Positions 6,306 to 46,628 of a stretch of DNA of 48,646 bases are shown piece by piece. Positions within the stretch are counted from its first letter, which is position 1. Each line of letters starts with the position of its first letter. Origin of the DNA: a phage; sequence record NC_136441.1; one strand, 5' to 3'. The position numbers were made by a program, and so were the translations under genes. Below the pieces are notes generated by a model. It had not been told where the DNA came from, did no database searches, and saw only the letters and a program-made list of their open reading frames with translations.

Positions 6306-6333
6306 TTGAACGTTTAACAAAAAATGCTATATT
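6306..6333 (+). promoter_or_regulatory. sigma70-like promoter upstream of major capsid gene
   Basis: TTGAAC-N16-TATATT. Confidence 0.4.
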
Positions 6334-16142: not shown

Positions 16143-16170
16143 AAACCCGCCGTTGCGCGGGTTTTTTGTT
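16143..16170 (+). terminator. rho-independent terminator
   Basis: CCCGC-CGTTGC-GCGGG followed by TTTTTTGTT. Confidence 0.75.
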
Positions 16171-16217
16171 ACATGTACAATGGCAGCACGTTTAAATAGC
16201 ACAAAAGGTTAAAAGCT

Positions 16218-21509: not shown

Positions 21510-21552
21510 ATAGCACTTTTTGCTAAAACAGCCATTCGATGCGTGGTATACT
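21510..21552 (+). promoter_or_regulatory. motif promoter (ATAGCACTTTTTGCTAAAAC + 21 nt + TATACT)
   Basis: conserved motif begins right after upstream stop; hairpin GATGCGTG/CACGCATC encloses the -10; upstream of gene 21585. Confidence 0.5.
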
Positions 21553-21584
21553 ACACGCATCAACAAACAAGAGAGGAAATAAAA

Positions 21585-21866: not shown

Positions 21867-21922
21867 ACTCATTAATTAAATTGGCGGTGAAAGCCGCCTA
21901 ACCTATCAGCGGAGTGAATTAG

Positions 21923-25253: not shown

Positions 25254-25294
25254 AATTTCACCTCATAGCATTTTTTGTTAAAATAGGTCATGTA

Positions 25295-26344: not shown

Positions 26345-26375
26345 TTCTCAACCTCCAAATAAAAAGCCTGGCACG

Positions 26376-26420
26376 ATGATAAACCATGCCAGGCTATAAT
26401 TTTTAGCAATCAGTGCTATC
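26376..26420 (-). promoter_or_regulatory. motif promoter (ATAGCACTGATTGCTAA + 22 nt + TATCAT) upstream of primase
   Basis: motif overlaps last codons/stop of HTH gene; -10 sits in loop of hairpin 26366..26394, which is followed by a T-run (also terminator-like). Confidence 0.45.
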
Positions 26421-27011
26421 CATAGTGATGACAACTTTCTTTTTCTGATTGGCTTCCTTTGCTTTCCTGCGTTCTTCTTTCGCCTTGTCTCGTTCAGCCT
26501 TGCGCCGCGCTTTCTCCTTCTCGCGTTCTTCTGGTGGCATTGACCGCAACGGATCGTAAGGCCGCACAAATCCGCGCGCCTCCGCTTCTTCTTTTGTGAC
26601 AAATCGCATGAGCTTTCTGTTGCTGCAACGATTCTCTAATGGCTTGCCGTTGTTGTCAAAGCGCAAATCTGGACGGCAATATGAAGCGCGGAAGCCGTTA
26701 AAACCTTTGCGGCGGTAATCCTTTTGGATCAGTTCAGCGCCTTTAGCTGAAATCATGCCGCGCTCTTTCCATCCCCACACTGTTTTAAGGTTAACGCCAA
26801 TCTCACGCGCCAACGCAGCACAGCCGCCATAAGCGCTAACCACCTCATCAAGCCTCGCTTTTAATCCTGCCCTTACTTCTTCCTTTAGTACCAGATAACC
26901 GCTAACAGGTGCGCGGCGCTTCCGGTCTTTACCACGCCTTACGCCGTTGTTACCATTGATTGTGCGTTTGTCGATTTCGCCCGTTGAGGCCGCAATTTTG
27001 ATTTCGCTCAT
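26403..27011 (-). CDS. helix-turn-helix DNA-binding protein (candidate transcription regulator)
   Basis: 202 aa; HTH-like GGCAALAREIGVNLKTVWGW; highly basic Lys/Arg/Glu C-terminal tail; SD AGGTGA. Confidence 0.5.
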   Translation of the reverse strand: MSEIKIAASTGEIDKRTINGNNGVRRGKDRKRRAPVSGYLVLKEEVRAGLKARLDEVVSAYGGCAALAREIGVNLKTVWGWKERGMISAKGAELIQKDYRRKGFNGFRASYCRPDLRFDNNGKPLENRCSNRKLMRFVTKEEAEARGFVRPYDPLRSMPPEEREKEKARRKAERDKAKEERRKAKEANQKKKVVITMDSTDC

Positions 27012-27021
27012 ATTTTCACCT

Positions 27022-27064
27022 ATAGCACTTTTTGCTAAAAAACTTGATTAAGTTTGTGTATGAT
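27022..27064 (+). promoter_or_regulatory. motif promoter (ATAGCACTTTTTGCTAAAAA + 21 nt + TATGAT) upstream of helicase
   Basis: motif, -10-like hexamer, hairpin ATGCC/GGCAT, then SD AAAGGA and ATG 27100. Confidence 0.5.
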
Positions 27065-29074: not shown

Positions 29075-29482
29075 ATGGTTATTGATAAAGGCGATTATCT
29101 GGAGTATTACGACAAGTCAGATCCAGACGATAGGAAGGAGGAATCGCACCAGGTTGATTCTTATTCATGGCTAACATATGAGTTTCCCATGTGGCTTGTT
29201 TGGCACACTAAAAACGAGGGGAAGAAAACCATAGGCACAGCCGTAAAGGATCAGCAAGCGGGTGTGAAGAAGGGAGTTAGCGACATTCTAATCCTGACTG
29301 GTTTTATTGGCTGCAAGTATTCATTTATAGCCATTGAGCTTAAACGCGCCAACAAGAAAGGCACGAAGGTAAGCGACGAACAAAAGGAATTCTTGCGACG
29401 TGTCAGAGAGTGCGGAGGGTTTGCCGCCGTATGCTATGGAGTAGAGCAAGTAAAATTGGCTATCGCAGACGCTACAAAATAG
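29075..29482 (+). CDS. VRR-NUC domain nuclease
   Basis: 135 aa; D...E.K-type core (SDILIL ... IAIELKRA) typical of VRR-NUC; immediately downstream of helicase. Confidence 0.55.
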   Translation: MVIDKGDYLEYYDKSDPDDRKEESHQVDSYSWLTYEFPMWLVWHTKNEGKKTIGTAVKDQQAGVKKGVSDILILTGFIGCKYSFIAIELKRANKKGTKVSDEQKEFLRRVRECGGFAAVCYGVEQVKLAIADATK

Positions 29483-29522
29483 CACTTTTTGTTAAAACAG
29501 GCGCAACGGAATGCGCCATAAT
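29479..29522 (+). promoter_or_regulatory. motif promoter (ATAGCACTTTTTGTTAAAAC + 22 nt + CATAAT)
   Basis: motif overlaps TAG stop of VRR-NUC; spacer hairpin GGCGCA/TGCGCC; upstream of lipoprotein gene. Confidence 0.55.
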
Positions 29523-30575: not shown

Positions 30576-30806
30576 ATGAGCATTCGATTAGCCGATCACA
30601 TGAAATGGGATTTATTTGTCGGTATGACAATTCGCTTACTTGATAAGCATGGTTATAACGCTGATAAAATGGAGTTGATAAACTGCCTGGATATGACATT
30701 TGACGAAATCAAAGTTGCGCCTTTGTACATGTGGGAAAGAAAAATTGAGCACGACCTGATACAATACAAACGCAGAGAGGGCGCACGATTTTTCAATGTG
30801 AAATAG
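30576..30806 (+). CDS. hypothetical protein
   Basis: 76 aa, coupled to dam stop; TAG stop embedded in motif. Confidence 0.45.
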   Translation: MSIRLADHMKWDLFVGMTIRLLDKHGYNADKMELINCLDMTFDEIKVAPLYMWERKIEHDLIQYKRREGARFFNVK

Positions 30807-30846
30807 CACTTTTTGTTAAAACCCGCTTCGGCGGGTTTTGTATTAT
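30803..30846 (+). promoter_or_regulatory. motif promoter (ATAGCACTTTTTGTTAAAAC + 22 nt + TATTAT) with terminator-like hairpin in spacer
   Basis: hairpin CCCGC-TTCG-GCGGG plus TTTTGTATT at 30821..30844. Confidence 0.5.
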
Positions 30847-35803: not shown

Positions 35804-35830
35804 CTAAAAATCTCCTTCTTGTTGCCGCTA

Positions 35831-35874
35831 ATTATAACGGCAACATTCTACAGCCTTTTAGCAATTCGTGCTAT
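35831..35874 (-). promoter_or_regulatory. motif promoter (ATAGCACGAATTGCTAAAAG + 22 nt + TATAAT)
   Basis: minus strand; motif overlaps TAG stop of 35871..36119; hairpin TTGCCG/CGGCAA with -10 in loop; upstream of ATPase gene. Confidence 0.5.
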
Positions 35875-36119
35875 TTGATCGGCTCAACCCTGGCTAATAA
35901 CTTTCCGTCTATAATGCTATGACATTCAAGAGTTTTAGGATCGAATGCAAGCGAACGATGGAACGTATGACCAATCAGCAAATATGAATGCTTATCCCTG
36001 ATGCGATAGACCGTTTCACCTTCCTTTAATGACGATATCGCACTAAAAACAACCTTGTAACGATATTTTTGCATAGCCTCAGAACGGTGAGGAATGTAAT
36101 CTTTTTCCGGTAAACTCAT
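35871..36119 (-). CDS. hypothetical protein
   Basis: 82 aa, coupled to upstream gene. Confidence 0.45.
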   Translation of the reverse strand: MSLPEKDYIPHRSEAMQKYRYKVVFSAISSLKEGETVYRIRDKHSYLLIGHTFHRSLAFDPKTLECHSIIDGKLLARVEPIK

Positions 36120-36510: not shown

Positions 36511-36554
36511 ATTATGCCGGATACGTGATCCGGCGTTTTAACAAAAAGTGCTAT
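36511..36554 (-). promoter_or_regulatory. motif promoter (ATAGCACTTTTTGTTAAAAC + 22 nt + CATAAT)
   Basis: minus strand; motif overlaps TAG stop of MTase-like gene; hairpin GCCGGAT/ATCCGGC in spacer. Confidence 0.55.
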
Positions 36555-37246
36555 TTCTGATTTGCCAGGCATACAGCAAGCGCAAAGCCGCGCGGAGTGA
36601 GTGAGCGGATCAGCTTTGTTCGCTTAGACTTTCCGCCGAGCTTTTGCCAGCCTGGATTGTTGTTCCCTGTTGGCAATACTGCGTTTGTATCCGGCATCAC
36701 AAAACCGTTACCCGTCCAAAGGCAAGTTTTTTTGGTGTACGCATCGCGAGCAGGAATGATTTCAGGAAAGTGAGGATGATTATCATCTTCCGGCAACAAA
36801 CCGCCAAACGCGCAAGGATGAAATATAAAATCAGGTTGCCGCCACATCGACGACAGGACGCTAACAGGATTCTCGATCATGTATGGAACGTTGAACCAAT
36901 CCGCAATTTCAGCCGCAATCTTGCATGTTGAAACGGCCTTGTCCTGGAATAGCGGATCACGTTCACGCTTTGCGGCAAAGTGACGCGAACCGCTAACAGC
37001 TAAATCAGTGCATGGAGGAAACGCGATCACAAAATCAGGCTTGCCGTAAACCTCATTGCGAGCCTTAAAGCTGAAATCTGAATCAATCCAAACGTTTACA
37101 TACTCAATGTTTTGATGACTTACGCGCACTGAATGGTAATCACCATGATCGGCATCATCATAATTGAAACAGATTACTTTGTGACCACGTTCAGCCCACG
37201 GCAACGCATCATAACCGGAACCGCTAAAAAGAGAAAAAACCAACAT
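36551..37246 (-). CDS. compact DNA cytosine-5 methyltransferase-like protein
   Basis: 231 aa from ATG 37246 (SD AAGGA); motif I-like LFSGSGYD, motif IV-like FPPCTDLAVSG (PCT not PCQ), motif VI-like MIENPVSV; no large target-recognition domain. Confidence 0.45.
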   Translation of the reverse strand: MLVFSLFSGSGYDALPWAERGHKVICFNYDDADHGDYHSVRVSHQNIEYVNVWIDSDFSFKARNEVYGKPDFVIAFPPCTDLAVSGSRHFAAKRERDPLFQDKAVSTCKIAAEIADWFNVPYMIENPVSVLSSMWRQPDFIFHPCAFGGLLPEDDNHPHFPEIIPARDAYTKKTCLWTGNGFVMPDTNAVLPTGNNNPGWQKLGGKSKRTKLIRSLTPRGFALAVCLANQK

Positions 37247-37354
37247 ACTTAAATCCTTTGTGTATGGCCTTGTGAGGCGTTTTGTTTGTAGGTGTGACAA
37301 TCGTATTAGTTACGGCCTGAAATCGCGCCATAATGCGAAACAGGCCGCTATTTT

Positions 37355-37923: not shown

Positions 37924-37967
37924 ATTATATCAATCAGAGCGATATCGTTTTTAGCAATTCGTGCTAT
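37924..37967 (-). promoter_or_regulatory. motif promoter (ATAGCACGAATTGCTAAAAA + 22 nt + TATAAT)
   Basis: minus strand, upstream of 37671..37892. Confidence 0.5.
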
Positions 37968-38661: not shown

Positions 38662-38705
38662 ATTATGCCAAAACAAACCGGATCGCTTTTAACAAAAAGT
38701 GCTAT
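38662..38705 (-). promoter_or_regulatory. motif promoter (ATAGCACTTTTTGTTAAAAG + 22 nt + CATAAT)
   Basis: minus strand, upstream of 38348..38629. Confidence 0.5.
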
Positions 38706-38807: not shown

Positions 38808-39001
38808 TAATCACTCTCCATGATAATTACAGGCTCCATGCGCTCAAGCACCACTTTGAAATCGGAGTAAAAAGTAGGGCGACGTTTTGTCAATTCCTCA
38901 TAGGTATCAGTTGCCAGGCAAGCGCGATCACCTTCATAGCACACAACGCGTTTACCATTTGCGCGACTGATTGCAACTACGCGATATGTATTATTGATCA
39001 T
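38807..39001 (-). CDS. hypothetical protein
   Basis: 64 aa, translationally coupled. Confidence 0.4.
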   Translation of the reverse strand: MINNTYRVVAISRANGKRVVCYEGDRACLATDTYEELTKRRPTFYSDFKVVLERMEPVIIMESD

Positions 39002-39485: not shown

Positions 39486-39530
39486 ATTATGCCCGGAATC
39501 AGATCCGGCACGTTTAACAAAAAGTGCTAT
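39486..39530 (-). promoter_or_regulatory. motif promoter (ATAGCACTTTTTGTTAAAC + 23 nt + CATAAT)
   Basis: minus strand; hairpin CCGGA/TCCGG in spacer. Confidence 0.5.
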
Positions 39531-39905: not shown

Positions 39906-40157
39906 TTACTTAGTAAGCCATTCCACACATTTAATGATGCACTCACCCTGTGAGCCGTAAAAAACACTTATCCCTTTCTGGCAGATTGTCCAGGTGCGAG
40001 ATCCCTTTGCGGTCTGCCTTACTTCAATCTGTAAGCCGCCACGCACCATGCATTTGAAAGCGCCAACCTTCTTACCTTTGCGCTTAGTGGTGTAATAGTC
40101 AGTTACCGTGATGCCTTTGTCAGTTGCCAGGTCAATCGCTTGTTGGATAGTTGCCAC
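39906..40157 (-). CDS. hypothetical protein
   Basis: 83 aa from GTG 40157 with SD AGGGGA; ORF-track TTG start 40199 is upstream of the predicted transcription start. Confidence 0.4.
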   Translation of the reverse strand: MATIQQAIDLATDKGITVTDYYTTKRKGKKVGAFKCMVRGGLQIEVRQTAKGSRTWTICQKGISVFYGSQGECIIKCVEWLTK

Positions 40158-40187
40158 TTTAAAATCCCCTGTCGTTTCGATGTGGTT

Positions 40188-40231
40188 ACTATATCGCAAC
40201 CCCTGAATCGAGTTTTAACAAAAAGTGCTAT
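40188..40231 (-). promoter_or_regulatory. motif promoter (ATAGCACTTTTTGTTAAAAC + 22 nt + TATAGT)
   Basis: minus strand; palindromic TCGAT...ATCGA and GGTT/AACC around the -10. Confidence 0.5.
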
Positions 40232-40554: not shown

Positions 40555-40599
40555 AATGTAGCGCATTCGTTTTGATTGGTTTTAACAAAAAGTGCTATT
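40555..40599 (-). promoter_or_regulatory. motif promoter (ATAGCACTTTTTGTTAAAAC + 22 nt + TACATT)
   Basis: minus strand, first promoter of the leftward early block. Confidence 0.5.
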
Positions 40600-40607
40600 C
40601 ATGCAGT

Positions 40608-40635
40608 AGACCGATTGGTCTAGACCGTTTGGTCT
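40608..40635. repeat. two tandem 14-bp near-palindromes AGACCGATTGGTCT / AGACCGTTTGGTCT
   Basis: direct reading; operator- or iteron-like. Confidence 0.8.
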
Positions 40636-40775
40636 AATGAACGCATCGTTCAACGTATCGAACGCATTCACGATCACGTTATACGATCACAATATGATCA
40701 TGTTGATGATTGATGTGTGAGTTGATGTGATTGAAATTGATTTGATTTGATTAGATTTGAGTAGTGAGTGAGTAG
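40636..40775. repeat. iteron-like cluster of short direct repeats (GAACGCAT x2, ACGATCAC x2, GATTGA/GATTTGA series, GTGAG x2)
   Basis: direct reading of non-coding control region. Confidence 0.7.
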
Positions 40776-41549: not shown

Positions 41550-41993
41550 ATGGAACAAATGACAAGTAAAGAGTTTTGCGAAAAATTGCGTGAAGCAGCA
41601 AGAGCGGCGGCAAAAGGTGAGGTGATCAAGTTGCCAGTTGCCTACATAACAATGAACGTCCAGGCAGAGGACGCAAAGAAGCTAAATTCCTCATACATTC
41701 GCACGATCATGAATCGTGTTCCAGAAGTAAAAGAGGTTGGATCTGTAAGCGTAAAGAAAAAGACAAGCGATGACGGCGCGGAATATTACGAGATCGCAAT
41801 CAACCGTGACACAAAGCGCCGCATCGTAACAACTAATGACCTTCCGGCAATCAAAGAGCATGAGCGCGAAAAACTGGTCGAAAAGATTATGCGTATATCG
41901 CCGGACTTCTCACACCTGGACGATGAAAAGGCACTTGTTGCAATGCGAGCGGTTGCCACGTTCAAAGATCTGATTAAGGAGATCTCAAAGTGA
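41550..41993 (+). CDS. hypothetical early protein
   Basis: 147 aa, SD AGAGGTGA. Confidence 0.5.
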   Translation: MEQMTSKEFCEKLREAARAAAKGEVIKLPVAYITMNVQAEDAKKLNSSYIRTIMNRVPEVKEVGSVSVKKKTSDDGAEYYEIAINRDTKRRIVTTNDLPAIKEHEREKLVEKIMRISPDFSHLDDEKALVAMRAVATFKDLIKEISK

Positions 41994-42097
41994 AAGCATT
42001 CGCCCTTGTCGCTGCAATGTGGTGCATGGTTATTGGTCATCCTGGCGTTACGCTGGCGTTGTGCGTATTTATTTTGTTGGGGGTGTTTGATGAATAA
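41990..42097 (+). CDS. hypothetical 35-aa hydrophobic peptide (GTG start)
   Basis: GTGA overlap with upstream stop, SD AAGGAG 8 nt upstream; single TM-like segment. Confidence 0.25.
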   Translation: MKAFALVAAMWCMVIGHPGVTLALCVFILLGVFDE

Positions 42098-42225: not shown

Positions 42226-42269
42226 ATAGCACTTTTTGTTAAAACTCGATTGGGGTAGTTTGGCATAAT
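42226..42269 (+). promoter_or_regulatory. motif promoter (ATAGCACTTTTTGTTAAAAC + 22 nt + CATAAT)
   Basis: long hairpin TCGATTGGGGTA/TACCCCATCGA with -10 in loop; upstream of 42308. Confidence 0.55.
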
Positions 42270-42307
42270 TACCCCATCGAAACGAAACGCACTAACAGGA
42301 GAACATC

Positions 42308-42496
42308 ATGAAATTATTAGGAAAACTTAACGCTAGCTCTTTGGTAATTGGTGACTTGATTGAGGTGGCTGGATCTTTATCGGTGGTGACTAGCGTTTTT
42401 GTTGATGGGGTAAAGGTGATAATTGAGACCGACAAGCTGCACCCATTCGAGCTTTGCTGTCTTGATGAAATTAAAGTTTATTCATCATTTAACTAA
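42308..42496 (+). CDS. hypothetical protein
   Basis: 62 aa, SD AGGAGAA. Confidence 0.45.
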   Translation: MKLLGKLNASSLVIGDLIEVAGSLSVVTSVFVDGVKVIIETDKLHPFELCCLDEIKVYSSFN

Positions 42497-42501
42497 CTGG
42501 A

Positions 42502-42545
42502 AAAGCACGAATTGCTAAAAAATAATCCTGGGCTTGCGGTATAGT
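42502..42545 (+). promoter_or_regulatory. motif promoter, variant (AAAGCACGAATTGCTAAAAA + 22 nt + TATAGT)
   Basis: hairpin GGGCTT/AAGCCC around -10; upstream of 42578. Confidence 0.5.
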
Positions 42546-42577
42546 AAGCCCATACCAAACAACGAGAGGATCACAAA

Positions 42578-42977
42578 ATGAAATTAGCACGTAACGCGGT
42601 TTATGGCTTACACCTTAATAAAGGCGGCAAAGGCTCAACTTATGCACACCTTTTTCATGTTAATGAGCGCGGTCAAATTGATATTGCAATGTATGTTGAC
42701 AAACTGGTTAAAGGTTGTGAGTCCAACAAGTTCAGACCAGATCTGATTGAATACGATCACACACACAGTCACGACCACTGGTTAGGTGGTTAAAGGTTGT
42801 GAGTCCAACAAGTTCAGACCAGATCTGATTGAATACGATCACACACACAGTCACGACCACTGGTTAGGTGGTTATAAATTTACAATGCTGGATAGCCATG
42901 TTATTGACACAAGAAAATTAACGAATCGTGACTATAGGCGCATGGCTCGAAAAATCCTGAGGCAGAAAGCGCAATAG
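42578..42977 (+). pseudogene. early gene split by a perfect 82-bp tandem duplication (fragments 42578..42793 and 42786..42977)
   Basis: two ORFs share a 28-aa overlap (VKGCESNKFRPDLIEYDHTHSHDHWLGG); removing one 82-bp copy restores a single 106-codon ORF. Confidence 0.55.
42705..42868 (+). repeat. perfect 82-bp tandem duplication (2 copies) flanked by TGGTTA microhomology
   Basis: 42705..42786 is identical to 42787..42868; next 6 nt (42869..42874) repeat the unit start. Confidence 0.9.
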
Positions 42978-43017
42978 CACGAAATGTTAAGCGGCCATGT
43001 GTGCTGATTGGTACAAT
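42974..43017 (+). promoter_or_regulatory. motif promoter, variant (ATAGCACGAAATGTTAAG + 22 nt + TACAAT)
   Basis: motif overlaps TAG stop; upstream of small ORF 43050. Confidence 0.45.
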
Positions 43018-43049
43018 GACCGCATCAACCAATAGGAGAGGATAGAAAA

Positions 43050-44089: not shown

Positions 44090-44133
44090 ATAGCACTTTT
44101 TGCTAAAACTTGCTAAGGCACATTTGATAAAGT
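44090..44133 (+). promoter_or_regulatory. motif promoter (ATAGCACTTTTTGCTAAAAC + 22 nt + TAAAGT)
   Basis: hairpin GGCACA/TGTGCC; upstream of 44167. Confidence 0.5.
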
Positions 44134-44166
44134 GTGCCTTGTCGAGACAAGCAAGGAGAATGACTA

Positions 44167-44421: not shown

Positions 44422-44600
44422 TGCTTGATAATAAAGTTGAAACACAAAAGACGATCAACTATCTGCGAGCGCTTGCTGATGCTCTTGATTCCGGCGAGGC
44501 AGCATTAAATGATGTTAGTATTGAGTCAAGAAATCACGGATGGACTCAGATCGAAGAAACATTAACCGTTCAATATTTTAAGGTGAATAAAGATGGCTAA
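44403..44600 (+). CDS. hypothetical protein
   Basis: 65-aa ORF overlapping neighbours; start uncertain. Confidence 0.35.
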   Translation: MVYFLMMLDNKVETQKTINYLRALADALDSGEAALNDVSIESRNHGWTQIEETLTVQYFKVNKDG

Positions 44601-45168
44601 AATTATAATCCTCAATGCGCCTCCTGGTGCTGGTAAAGACACGATAGGCAAGATGATTTCTGTCTATTCGCCTGGTAAGCAATGCCGAATCATTAGCTTT
44701 AAAGAGCCAATGTTTGATATTGCATTAGCTATCCTGGGCAAAGAGAACTATAAGCGTTTCATGCTGGCTTACGATGACAGAGAGCAGAAAGAAAGGCCGC
44801 AAACGTTCCTGATGGGTATGTCACCGCGCGAGTTCATGATCTGGATTAGCGAGGATGTGATCAAGCCTAAATTCGGTAAGGATTATTTCGGCGTAAGGTT
44901 TAATCAGAAAGTAAAAGAGTGTGATGCTCCTGTTGTTTGCACTGATGGCGGTTTTCCAGATGAAATTATAGCGCTAATCAATGCTGGTAATGAGGTGAAG
45001 TTATGCCGCTTGCATCGCGAAGGGTTCACGTTTGCAGGTGATAGCCGCAACTACATTCGAATCAATCCCTATTACCAGAAAAACGGATATAGCGAGCACG
45101 ATTATAAATTGGTTGATAAGCAACCGAATGTAACTGTAAAGGAAATTATTCGCGATCACCTTAAATAG
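44593..45168 (+). CDS. P-loop nucleotide kinase (dNMP kinase-like)
   Basis: 191 aa; N-terminal P-loop ILNAPPGAGKDT, resembling the GxxxSGKDT pattern of phage dNMP kinases. Confidence 0.5.
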   Translation: MAKIIILNAPPGAGKDTIGKMISVYSPGKQCRIISFKEPMFDIALAILGKENYKRFMLAYDDREQKERPQTFLMGMSPREFMIWISEDVIKPKFGKDYFGVRFNQKVKECDAPVVCTDGGFPDEIIALINAGNEVKLCRLHREGFTFAGDSRNYIRINPYYQKNGYSEHDYKLVDKQPNVTVKEIIRDHLK

Positions 45169-45208
45169 CACGAATTGCTAAAACTTGCGCAAGGCCATTT
45201 GTTATAGT
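45165..45208 (+). promoter_or_regulatory. motif promoter, variant (ATAGCACGAATTGCTAAAAC + 22 nt + TATAGT)
   Basis: motif overlaps TAG stop of kinase gene; hairpin AAGGCCA/TGGCCTT. Confidence 0.5.
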
Positions 45209-45248
45209 GGCCTTATTCAAGAGAAGCAACCAATCAGAGGAATAAGCG

Positions 45249-45788: not shown

Positions 45789-46030
45789 ATAGAAAAATGC
45801 TGGTACGCGCATTCGCAAAGATTGCTAAAAGATGGGGTGATTCAGCTAAAACACCTTACACGTTTAGTATGTACGGTTACAAGAATGCTCGCGCCTGGGG
45901 TCGCTGCATTGCGGATAACTACAACTCCGAAATTCTGGAAGATTTCGCAAGCTGGATTGATACGCCGCTAAATGAATGGGGCCAGGCTGAATATGATTGT
46001 TTTGCTGATGAAGAAATTTCTTGCTGGTAA
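45785..46030 (+). CDS. hypothetical protein
   Basis: 81 aa, ATGA overlap. Confidence 0.45.
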   Translation: MNRKMLVRAFAKIAKRWGDSAKTPYTFSMYGYKNARAWGRCIADNYNSEILEDFASWIDTPLNEWGQAEYDCFADEEISCW

Positions 46031-46041
46031 GGAGAATTAAC

Positions 46042-46554
46042 ATGATCGCTAAAAATGACCTTTGCAACCTGTTAACTGCTGGTAATGATTATCAGGTTTT
46101 GAATAGTACAGAAGACCGTTACTTTATTGAGTGTGACAATGGTGATCGCATGTGGATTAAAAAAGGATTTTTCGAAAGCGAGCACCTAAGCAATGCAAAG
46201 CGGATCGCAGATGAAGCAAGCGCATTAGCAGAGCGTGAACGAATTCGCGATATAGTAGCGGATCAGGTTAGAAATTCTTGTTTGCCTGGTGGCGATATCT
46301 TCAAATCAATGCGCGGTGAAATGACGGTTGGAATTCAAGATCGAGTAATTGAAAAATCAGTTGATTATGTAATTGAGAATGCGAAATTCAATGCGTTGAT
46401 TGACTCAGAGCATAACGAATACGTCAAAGTATTAGAGCAACTGCGTGAAGTGCTGCGAGTGCCGGAAGGTAAAAACATAGTGACACATGCAAAGGTTGTA
46501 AGAGCGCTTGCTGATGCTTTACTTGACGTTTATCCAGGAATGAAGTGCAAATAG
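46042..46554 (+). CDS. hypothetical protein
   Basis: 170 aa from ATG 46042 with SD AAGGAGA. Confidence 0.5.
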   Translation: MIAKNDLCNLLTAGNDYQVLNSTEDRYFIECDNGDRMWIKKGFFESEHLSNAKRIADEASALAERERIRDIVADQVRNSCLPGGDIFKSMRGEMTVGIQDRVIEKSVDYVIENAKFNALIDSEHNEYVKVLEQLREVLRVPEGKNIVTHAKVVRALADALLDVYPGMKCK

Positions 46555-46594
46555 CACTTTTTGTTAAAACTTCCGCGAGGGCATTTGTTAAAGT
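46551..46594 (+). promoter_or_regulatory. motif promoter (ATAGCACTTTTTGTTAAAAC + 22 nt + TAAAGT)
   Basis: motif overlaps TAG stop; hairpin GAGGGCA/TGTCCTC. Confidence 0.5.
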
Positions 46595-46628
46595 GTCCTC
46601 ATTGAAGCGAAACACGGAGATTTAGAAA

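Follow-up and report, generated by a model that had tools for sequence, protein, structure and literature searches.

What function do the small hairpins serve that lie inside predicted promoters of the phage genome NC_136441.1, between a conserved 21-nucleotide (nt) motif and the -10 hexamer? The window analysed here is the whole stretch of 48,646 nt. The question was raised by the dyad GGCGCA/TGCGCC (29500-29517), which is present as the initial annotation had stated, right after the motif copy at 29480-29497. Below, the repeated unit of motif, gap and -10 hexamer is called a cassette. We show that pairing in these cassettes is under selection, and that the hairpins are conserved by position while their arms turn over. 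With some reserve, we regard the hairpin as probably being a leaky terminator and/or a 3' stabiliser of the upstream cistron, nested in the promoter of the next one.

NC_136441.1 (48.6 kb) is the complete genome of a T1-like siphophage of the genus Tlsvirus, family Drexlerviridae. Over a 7-kb segment, it shares 97% identity with Citrobacter phage BSwS KMM3 and 95% with phage TLS; hundreds of Escherichia, Klebsiella and Shigella phages are its more distant relatives. The cassette motif (aaATAGCACnnnTTGnTAAAA) has been published as a 21-nt direct repeat in TLS, and its positions correspond to the direct repeats DR1-DR18. The 18 intergenic copies in TLS are oriented with transcription and lie ~76 nt 5' of start codons; their function was left as an open question, for which a stoperator, an enhancer or an UP element was suggested (PMC11447400). 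Neither a phage RNA polymerase nor a sigma factor gene was reported for TLS, and that paper is silent on a -10 hexamer at a fixed distance and on embedded hairpins, save for two ordinary terminators, T57 and T62 (PMC11447400). In the literature searched, the motif sequence occurs in no other paper. The embedded hairpins are likewise undescribed for T1-like phages, including SU57, AHP24 and KanT1, in the searched literature, which did not comprise the T1 genome paper of Roberts et al. 2004.

The window contains 21 good copies of the motif, and 18 of these show a canonical layout of motif, 19-nt gap (18-20 nt), -10-like hexamer, A-rich leader, Shine-Dalgarno sequence (SD) and ATG, the latter ~74-83 nt from the motif start. 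For comparison, TLS, T1, five other Drexlerviridae genomes and 120 motif-holding IMG/VR stretches yielded 444 unique canonical cassettes (gap of exactly 19 nt in 387); in 458/523 cassettes, the motif and the -10-like hexamer are 19 nt apart. A -35 element at 17 nt is absent from these predicted promoters, its place being occupied by the motif, the centre of which falls near -40, as does a class II activator site. A conserved leader, CATCGAAACGAA, is found 3' of the -10 (e.g. 42227-42310). The motif itself also closes two reading frames, with a TAG at its position 1 and a TAA at its position 14 (e.g. 29480-29497), and an upstream stop codon lies in or beside it at 12 sites of the window. Among the 368 cassettes in which a co-oriented open reading frame (ORF) ends, the stop is the motif TAG in 193 and the TAA at +13 in 52. 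Since its stops thus end the upstream ORF in 245 of 368 cassettes, the motif is a coding-end signal and a putative promoter element at once. Cassettes are concentrated among small early ORFs and make up 3.1% of the genome studied here.

The gaps contain more structure than expected by chance. When 42 nt (the last 4 nt of the motif and the next 38 nt) were folded and compared with 300 dinucleotide shuffles, the mean z over the 21 motif copies of the window was -2.9, with p<=0.03 in 13. Folding energies of -10 kcal/mol or lower were found in 13/18 canonical cassettes versus 7.5% of 2000 random 42-nt windows of the genome; 13-14 of the 18 carry hairpins whose stability is far above that in shuffles or random windows of the genome, clearly in excess of chance. 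The 444 unique cassettes have a mean minimum free energy of -11.7 kcal/mol compared to -5.9 kcal/mol in shuffles, with z<-2 in 66% and -10 kcal/mol or lower in 70%, and the hairpins are therefore a property of the whole family, beyond one genome. All dyads listed in the initial annotation exist (36516-36534, 21538-21561, 42529-42552, 42246-42280, 39489-39511 and others). The true site of TTGCCG/CGGCAA is 35820-35845 rather than 35837-35858, and the list overlooked four hairpins (44109-44146, 46570-46607, 40177-40211 and 42991-43023). Rfam 15 gave no match at the gathering score over the whole window, and a tRNA scan of it was likewise empty.

Two hairpin geometries can be distinguished. In class A (110 unique cassettes), a ~7-bp stem (6.8) with a ~6-nt loop (5.8) lies entirely in the gap, with a 3' arm that reaches into the first bases of the -10. 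In class B (155 unique cassettes), the stem encloses the -10: its 5' arm is in the gap, the hexamer is held in a ~9-nt loop (8.7), and the discriminator forms the 3' arm, which in 85/155 extends to 5 nt past the hexamer, about 1-2 nt short of the predicted start. The bases that directly follow the motif are often paired with the beginning of the leader in an outer helix. Loop lengths across cassettes range from 4 to 14 nt. In both classes, the arms fill promoter positions that the polymerase does not read by sequence. The hexamer itself bears traces of this arrangement. Its first base is C in 40% of class A, as a member of a G-C pair (compare pair 7-24 of sub-family A5, below), versus 13-16% in the other classes, and the TGn of an extended -10, found before the hexamer in the majority of class B and of hairpin-less cassettes, is replaced in class A by stem bases (GGG). 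Both the C and the loss of TGn are explained by the stem abutting the -10.

The evidence for selection on pairing comes from sub-families and orthologous sites, as no single structure unites the cassettes. A column-pair analysis of the 387 cassettes with a 19-nt gap detected almost no common register (best anti-diagonal excess 0.08), and RNAalifold on eight orthologs of the 35873 site gave no consensus pairs, though each sequence folds strongly alone; a structure common to all cassettes was rejected on these results. Because the hairpins are conserved in position and are not homologous column by column, covariation can be counted only within sub-families that share a register. In one of these, A2 (class B, 16 sequences), 95.5% of cells are paired versus 79.9% after shuffling, the covariation score is 0.43 versus 0.135 (reached by 0/500 shuffles; best slid control 0.10) and 6/11 pairs show changes on both sides. 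In A5 (class A, 22 sequences, including orthologs picked regardless of pairing), the corresponding values are 89.2% versus 77.3% and 0.369 versus 0.158 (0/500; best slid control 0.11).

Orthology was also set independently of the hairpin, by tblastx of the downstream gene, resulting in 33 groups with at least four unique spacers. The hairpin is kept in at least 80% of the members in 19/33 groups, 16 of which (16/19) contain at least three different arm pairs, and 6/33 groups are consistently hairpin-less. Close relatives of the 42503 site show stepwise replacement, from GGGCTT/AAGCCC through GGGCTT/AAGCTC (TLS, with a G.U pair) to GAGCTT/AAGCTC, and at the focal site a close relative has GGCGCG/TGCGCC, with a G.U pair, and other genera have CCCGGC-gaaa-GCCGGG. 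Counted by lineage, 136 changes fall on 2948 stem positions versus 208 on 2892 unpaired positions, and double changes keep pairing in six cases versus three that break it; this test lends only moderate support, as it is biased by taking the more stable sequence as reference. Selection for structure, as proposed from the window alone, is thus borne out by compensatory changes, G.U intermediates and orthologous hairpins that are kept as their arms change. The term "co-varying" applies in the strict sense in related genomes; it does not extend to one homologous structure with a single register. The pattern is one in which "a hairpin here" is kept with frequent replacement of the stem, not one ancient structure.

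Mismatches within the stems point to the molecule concerned. Across 153 distinct stems, each counted once, internal mismatches are G:T in 42 cases versus A:C in 4 (25 versus 3 by sequence cluster; class A 20:0, class B 33:4). If pairs decayed neutrally, both types should be about equally frequent, and base-composition bias would shift the ratio only ~1.5-fold, a rough estimate rather than a computed value. The sense RNA folds more stably than the antisense RNA in 69% of cassettes (p 2e-24), and 13/23 distinct class A tetraloops are GNRA or UUCG versus ~5% expected. As the mismatches are strand-asymmetric, a two-strand cruciform or a duplex protein site is disfavoured. Among the functions first offered for the hairpins, the RNA options of a 3' element or attenuator are therefore favoured by the mismatch counts, the loops and the upstream ORF, while the cruciform fares badly. 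Pairing is under selection on the sense strand, and we infer that the structure acts as RNA.

The hairpins are also linked to the gene that ends at the cassette. Folding energies of -10 kcal/mol or lower occur in 78% of the 368 cassettes with a co-oriented upstream ORF versus 33% of the 76 without one (p 1e-10, with cassettes that are not phylogenetically independent). In the window, a hairpin is present at 0/2 operon-first cassettes (27023+ and 40597-) versus 14/16 internal ones (Fisher's exact p ~0.04, calculated by hand). Counted from the first base of the stop codon, the 5' arm begins 18-21 nt further on, which by a footprint-based estimate is just past a terminating ribosome. Only two hairpins of the window are followed by T-runs, as had been noted before; these (26365-26395 and 30818-30839) are canonical terminators. 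A U-tract (at least five U in the 8 nt after the stem) follows 24% of class A and 6% of class B hairpins. In the GenBank record of T1, four hairpins of cassettes (38973-39001, 39998-40024, 41980-42007, 35930-35971) are entered as rho-independent terminators. The initial annotation's statement that the hairpins are not generic terminators is apt for the majority, which lack a U-tract, and too strong for those abutting the -10, in view of the four annotated in T1. Outside the cassettes, a U-less GNRA-type hairpin, GGCGG-tgaaa-GCCGCC, lies at 21884-21899 (+) in the motif-less gap between the gp52-like ORF and recT (TLS T52), which suggests that U-less 3' hairpins are used there too.

On our reading, a sense transcript arriving from the upstream gene would carry the hairpin as the 3'-end hairpin of the preceding cistron, where it probably attenuates read-through into the next unit by leaky termination, and/or shields the upstream mRNA from 3'-to-5' exonucleases after termination or cleavage. 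The arms sit in promoter positions not read by sequence because almost no intergenic space is left. Both arms of class A occupy the spacer, and the A/U-rich -10 would serve as a weak tail; in class B the 5' arm occupies the spacer, the -10 the loop, and the 3' arm the discriminator just short of the predicted start. We read the set as a continuum that extends from true terminators through leaky ones (class A, with the -10 as tail) to U-less hairpins. The latter more plausibly act by pausing the polymerase and by shielding the 3' end of the upstream mRNA once termination or cleavage has occurred further downstream.

A precedent exists in the promoter-early stem-loop (PeSL) cassettes of the T4-type phages RB49 and phi1 (Arbiol et al. 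2010, PMC2839356), of which one stem-loop was tested as a terminator, and for which G-T pairs were noted and a role in module shuffling was proposed (PMC2839356). Both systems are repeated intergenic units leading from an upstream stop in an A/T-rich stretch through a promoter element to SD and ATG, with a stem-loop that mostly either separates the upstream element from the -10 or overlaps the latter. They also share G-T pairs in the stem and a concentration among small non-essential early ORFs. The stem-loop is read in both as a terminator or attenuator of upstream transcription, which for the T1-like cassettes would hold by analogy. The T1-like cassettes differ in belonging to another family, the siphovirus family Drexlerviridae, in a strictly conserved motif of 18-21 nt, placed 19 nt from the -10, instead of the sigma-70 -35 at 17 nt of PeSLs, in stems that are not of the GGGG/CCCC type and in the single mosaic boundary seen at them in the comparison with TLS.

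The cassette hairpins resemble intrinsic terminators in their G+C-rich 6-9 bp stems, in their GNRA or UUCG loops and in their site a few nt beyond the reach of a ribosome on the stop codon. T-runs in two cassettes of the window and in one whole ortholog group, and the four T1 hairpins so annotated, add to the likeness. However, most lack a U-tract and the loops of class B are long, so that class A has the stem and short loop of a terminator and most hairpins are without its tail. Repetitive extragenic palindromic (REP)-type stem-loops and Rho-trimmed 3' stem-loops are likewise U-less, stable, located 3' of the stop, sense-strand and free in sequence. Unlike REP elements, each cassette hairpin is unique and not a repeated sequence.

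The reading as a leaky terminator or 3' stabiliser is thus based on the excess of structure, the selection for pairing, the RNA-like signature of the sense strand, the link to the upstream cistron, the continuum with true terminators and the PeSL precedent. Several observations weigh against it. At the level of ortholog groups, hairpins and an upstream ORF are weakly correlated (rho 0.30, p 0.095), the internal cassettes 37966- and 38704- are without hairpins, and the operon-first helicase promoter of T1 shows long-range pairing. Tails of class B are A-rich (mean 1.45 T in 8 nt), and those of class A contain 3.4 T in 8 nt, a T content that the -10 alone accounts for. The T content of the -10 region is 3.8 in class A versus 3.6 in hairpin-less cassettes, giving no signal of U-tract selection in class A, which was therefore rejected. 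The late region of the phage has canonical terminators with A-tract, stem and T-tract. Single stem changes within groups break pairing in 73 cases versus 45 that keep it, so that the constraint on single pairs is moderate and turnover of whole stems is common. Tolerance of G.T pairs and GNRA-type loops also stabilise single-stranded DNA hairpins, and a hairpin in the non-template DNA strand may be compatible with the mismatch, fold and loop results as well. The literature searched held no transcriptome, transcription start site, RNA 3'-end or expression data for T1-like phages.

Such a DNA hairpin could act as a promoter element if, extruded by supercoiling or passing polymerases, it tuned open-complex formation by the host sigma-70 polymerase. 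In class B it would present the -10 single-stranded in the loop, and in class A it would reshape the over-long gap between motif and -10; we consider this unlikely. The -10 of class B always lies in the loop, the end of the 3' arm is fixed (5 nt past the hexamer in 85/155), no -35 exists at the proper distance, and the G:T tolerance fits one DNA strand as well as RNA. Yet the register varies, with two classes, shifts of 1-3 nt and no common column pairing, and class A leaves the -10 unexposed. Moreover, operon-first promoters, whose need of such help would be no smaller, have hairpins least often, plain U-tract terminators occur among the cassettes, and a true cruciform would bear A:C mismatches on the opposite strand. 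Short stems (6-8 bp) with 8-12-nt loops would also be expected to extrude poorly. The more specific idea that in class B a -10 held single-stranded in the loop is "pre-melted" for sigma-70 by supercoiling or an upstream polymerase is more doubtful still; if true, the device would be a relay coupling successive -35-less promoters with the host polymerase alone. A one-strand DNA hairpin tied to a promoter is known from the early promoters of phage N4 and from Frpo of the F plasmid, which class B resembles with its -10 in the loop. In contrast to the unconserved stems and loops and the varying register of the cassettes, N4 promoters have a conserved 5-7-bp stem and a 3-nt loop and are used by a virion RNA polymerase. 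No phage polymerase or sigma factor is reported for TLS (PMC11447400). An N4-like promoter was rejected, given 153 distinct stems without a conserved register.

The remaining candidates concern other uses of the same DNA or RNA. It is very unlikely, in our estimate on a par with the class B relay, that motif and hairpin are mainly recombination linkers, i.e. hot spots or boundaries for the exchange of small modules in the manner proposed for PeSLs (PMC2839356), without an RNA function. This idea accords with the concentration of cassettes among small early ORFs and with the module 42287-42501, which is replaced relative to TLS and bounded exactly by the cassettes 42227 and 42503. That module has one 62-aa ORF in place of TLS 1584-2555 (gp04, stp, gp06 and an extra repeat copy), and its homology breakpoints lie inside the flanking cassettes, as cassette-mediated exchange would give. 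The other ~10 breakpoints relative to TLS are 100-2000 nt from any cassette, and cassettes as general mosaic boundaries were rejected because only one module fits. Exchange also needs shared sequence, yet the arms are the least conserved part, and a strand-asymmetric G:T tolerance is unexpected for a duplex recombination site. Slightly less probable again is processing, with RNase III or a phage enzyme cutting the polycistronic RNA between genes as at the R sites of T7. The intergenic position, the structure on the sense strand and the two helices of class B with a 3x3 internal loop would suit such sites. However, paired lengths are only 6-13 bp, short of the roughly two helical turns that RNase III needs, loop and arm sequences are unconserved and Rfam offers no match; an RNase III site was rejected on stem length together with the unconserved arms and loops. 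Palindromic operators for a dimeric repressor or activator have next to no probability. They would fit dyad symmetry beside a promoter in a phage encoding a helix-turn-helix (HTH) regulator, but no common protein could read arms that differ completely between cassettes (153 distinct stems). The G:T versus A:C asymmetry and loops of 4-14 nt do not suit a duplex binding site either, and with this arm diversity and no recurring half-site the operator is effectively refuted.

The 21-nt repeat thus emerges as the upstream element of a composite unit of stop codon, motif, hairpin, -10 and leader that is conserved across the Drexlerviridae, and the embedded hairpins help to frame the open question of its function. 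Far from being neutral filler, the variable 19-nt gap encodes a sense-strand hairpin that is under selection. No new principle is involved, and the likely function is ordinary. The cassettes provide a testable model of how very compact phages separate many single-gene transcription units. They represent a second, independent example of the promoter/stem-loop architecture known from T4-type phages and yield short natural parts that may combine promoter and insulator. The individual cassettes of the window are compiled in the table.

Table. Canonical cassettes of the window, with their motif copies, -10 hexamers and hairpins (dG, folding energy; z, score against shuffles).
Cassette (strand)	Type	Motif	Motif TAG is stop of	-10 hexamer	Hairpin	dG	z	Remarks
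29480..29522 (+)	class A, focal	29480-29497	ORF 29075-29482	CATAAT 29517-29522	GGCGCA-acggaa-TGCGCC, 29500-29517	-11.0	-2.5	first base of -10 is last C of hairpin
21511..21561 (+)	class B	21511-21528		TATACT 21547-21552, in loop	GATGCGTG/CACGCATC, 21538-21561	-14.2	-4.7	orthologs with different arms
26365..26418 (-)	class B with T-run	26401-26418, in 3' end of regulator ORF 26403-27011		TATCAT 26376-26381, enclosed by hairpin	13 bp, 26365-26395, then TTTTT	-21.9	-7.4	canonical terminator, counterpart of TLS T57; hairpin and T-run in 15/15 orthologous spacers with 11 different arm pairs
30804..30846 (+)		30804-30821	ORF 30576-30806	TATTAT 30841-30846	AAAACCCGC-ttcg-GCGGGTTTT, 30818-30839			stem uses A-tract of motif; counterpart of TLS T62
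35820..35873 (-)	class B	35856-35873	ORF 35871-36119	TATAAT 35831-35836, in loop	TTGCCG/CGGCAA core, 35820-35845	-16.7	-5.1	hairpin in 8/8 orthologous spacers with 7 different arm pairs
36511..36553 (-)	class A	36536-36553	ORF 36551-37300	CATAAT 36511-36516	GCCGGAT/ATCCGGC, 36516-36534	-11.7		
39486..39529 (-)	class A, 20-nt gap	39512-39529		CATAAT 39486-39491	CCGGA/TCCGG core, 39489-39511 (-)	-10.6		
40177..40230 (-)	class B	40213-40230		TATAGT 40188-40193	two helices, GGTTGC/GTAACC with G.U, outer CTCGA/TCGAA, 40177-40211	-11.8	-3.2	
42227..42280 (+)	class B	42227-42244		CATAAT 42264-42269, in loop	TGGGGTA/TACCCCA, outer CTCGAT/ATCGA, 42246-42280	-18.9	-5.4	
42503..42552 (+)	class B	42503-42520		TATAGT 42540-42545, in loop	GGGCTT/AAGCCC, 42529-42552	-15.8		
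42975..43023 (+)	degenerate motif	42975-42992	ORF 42786-42977	TACAAT 43012-43017	interrupted, around -10, 42991-43023	-15.0	-2.1	
44091..44146 (+)	class B	44091-44108		TAAAGT 44128-44133	AAGGCACA/TGTGCCTT, outer CTTG/CGAG, 44109-44146	-20	-7.1	
45166..45221 (+)	class B	45166-45183	ORF 44593-45168	TATAGT 45203-45208	AAGGCCA/TGGCCTT (~45191-45214), outer CTTG/CAAG, 45184-45221			
46552..46607 (+)	class B	46552-46569	ORF 46021-46554	TAAAGT 46589-46594	GAGGGCA/TGTCCTC with G.U, outer CTTC/GAAG, 46570-46607			
27023..27064 (+)	hairpin-less, operon-first (rightward helicase unit)	27023-27040		TATGAT 27059-27064			-0.4	no co-oriented upstream gene; -10 kcal/mol or lower in only 16% of 19 orthologous spacers
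40555..40597 (-)	hairpin-less, operon-first (leftward early unit)	40580-40597		TACATT 40555-40560		-4.4		
37924..37966 (-)	internal, no significant hairpin	37949-37966		TATAAT 37924-37929		-2.1		
38662..38704 (-)	internal, no significant hairpin	38687-38704		CATAAT 38662-38667				hairpin missing from 4/4 orthologous spacers too

Three further copies of the motif, at 16197-16214 (+), 6312-6329 (-) and 25266-25283 (+), are without the cassette layout. One stops 3 nt before the ATG of a gene for a 1258-aa tail protein, after the canonical terminator at 16143-16164, another is antisense within the late region, and the third faces a minus-strand gene. A candidate reader of the 21-nt motif is the HTH protein encoded by ORF 26403-27011 (-). 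This 202-aa ORF is the counterpart of TLS gp57 and of T1 ST23, a "transcriptional regulator", with a weak YdaS/Cro-like HTH match in Pfam (E 5.5e-6, below the curated cut-off). Its stop codon falls within the motif copy 26401-26418, and in TLS the gene is listed with a plain sigma-70 promoter, P57.

Some database records of related genomes carry unexpected host names. The record "Streptococcus phage MBBL140", with an identity of 94.7% over 7 kb, and 19 "Campylobacter phage" records (UNVERIFIED, Drexlerviridae) are T1-like enterobacterial phage genomes, and their Streptococcus and Campylobacter host labels are probably contamination artefacts. Finally, the divergent intergenic region 40598-40760 (read on the minus strand), upstream of the leftward early unit, could be an origin, a pac site or a regulatory region. 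It contains tandem ATCAA/ATCAAATC-like repeats and several short palindromes, TGATCATATTGTGATCG among them, as well as AGACCAAACGGTCT followed by AGACCAATCGGTCT.

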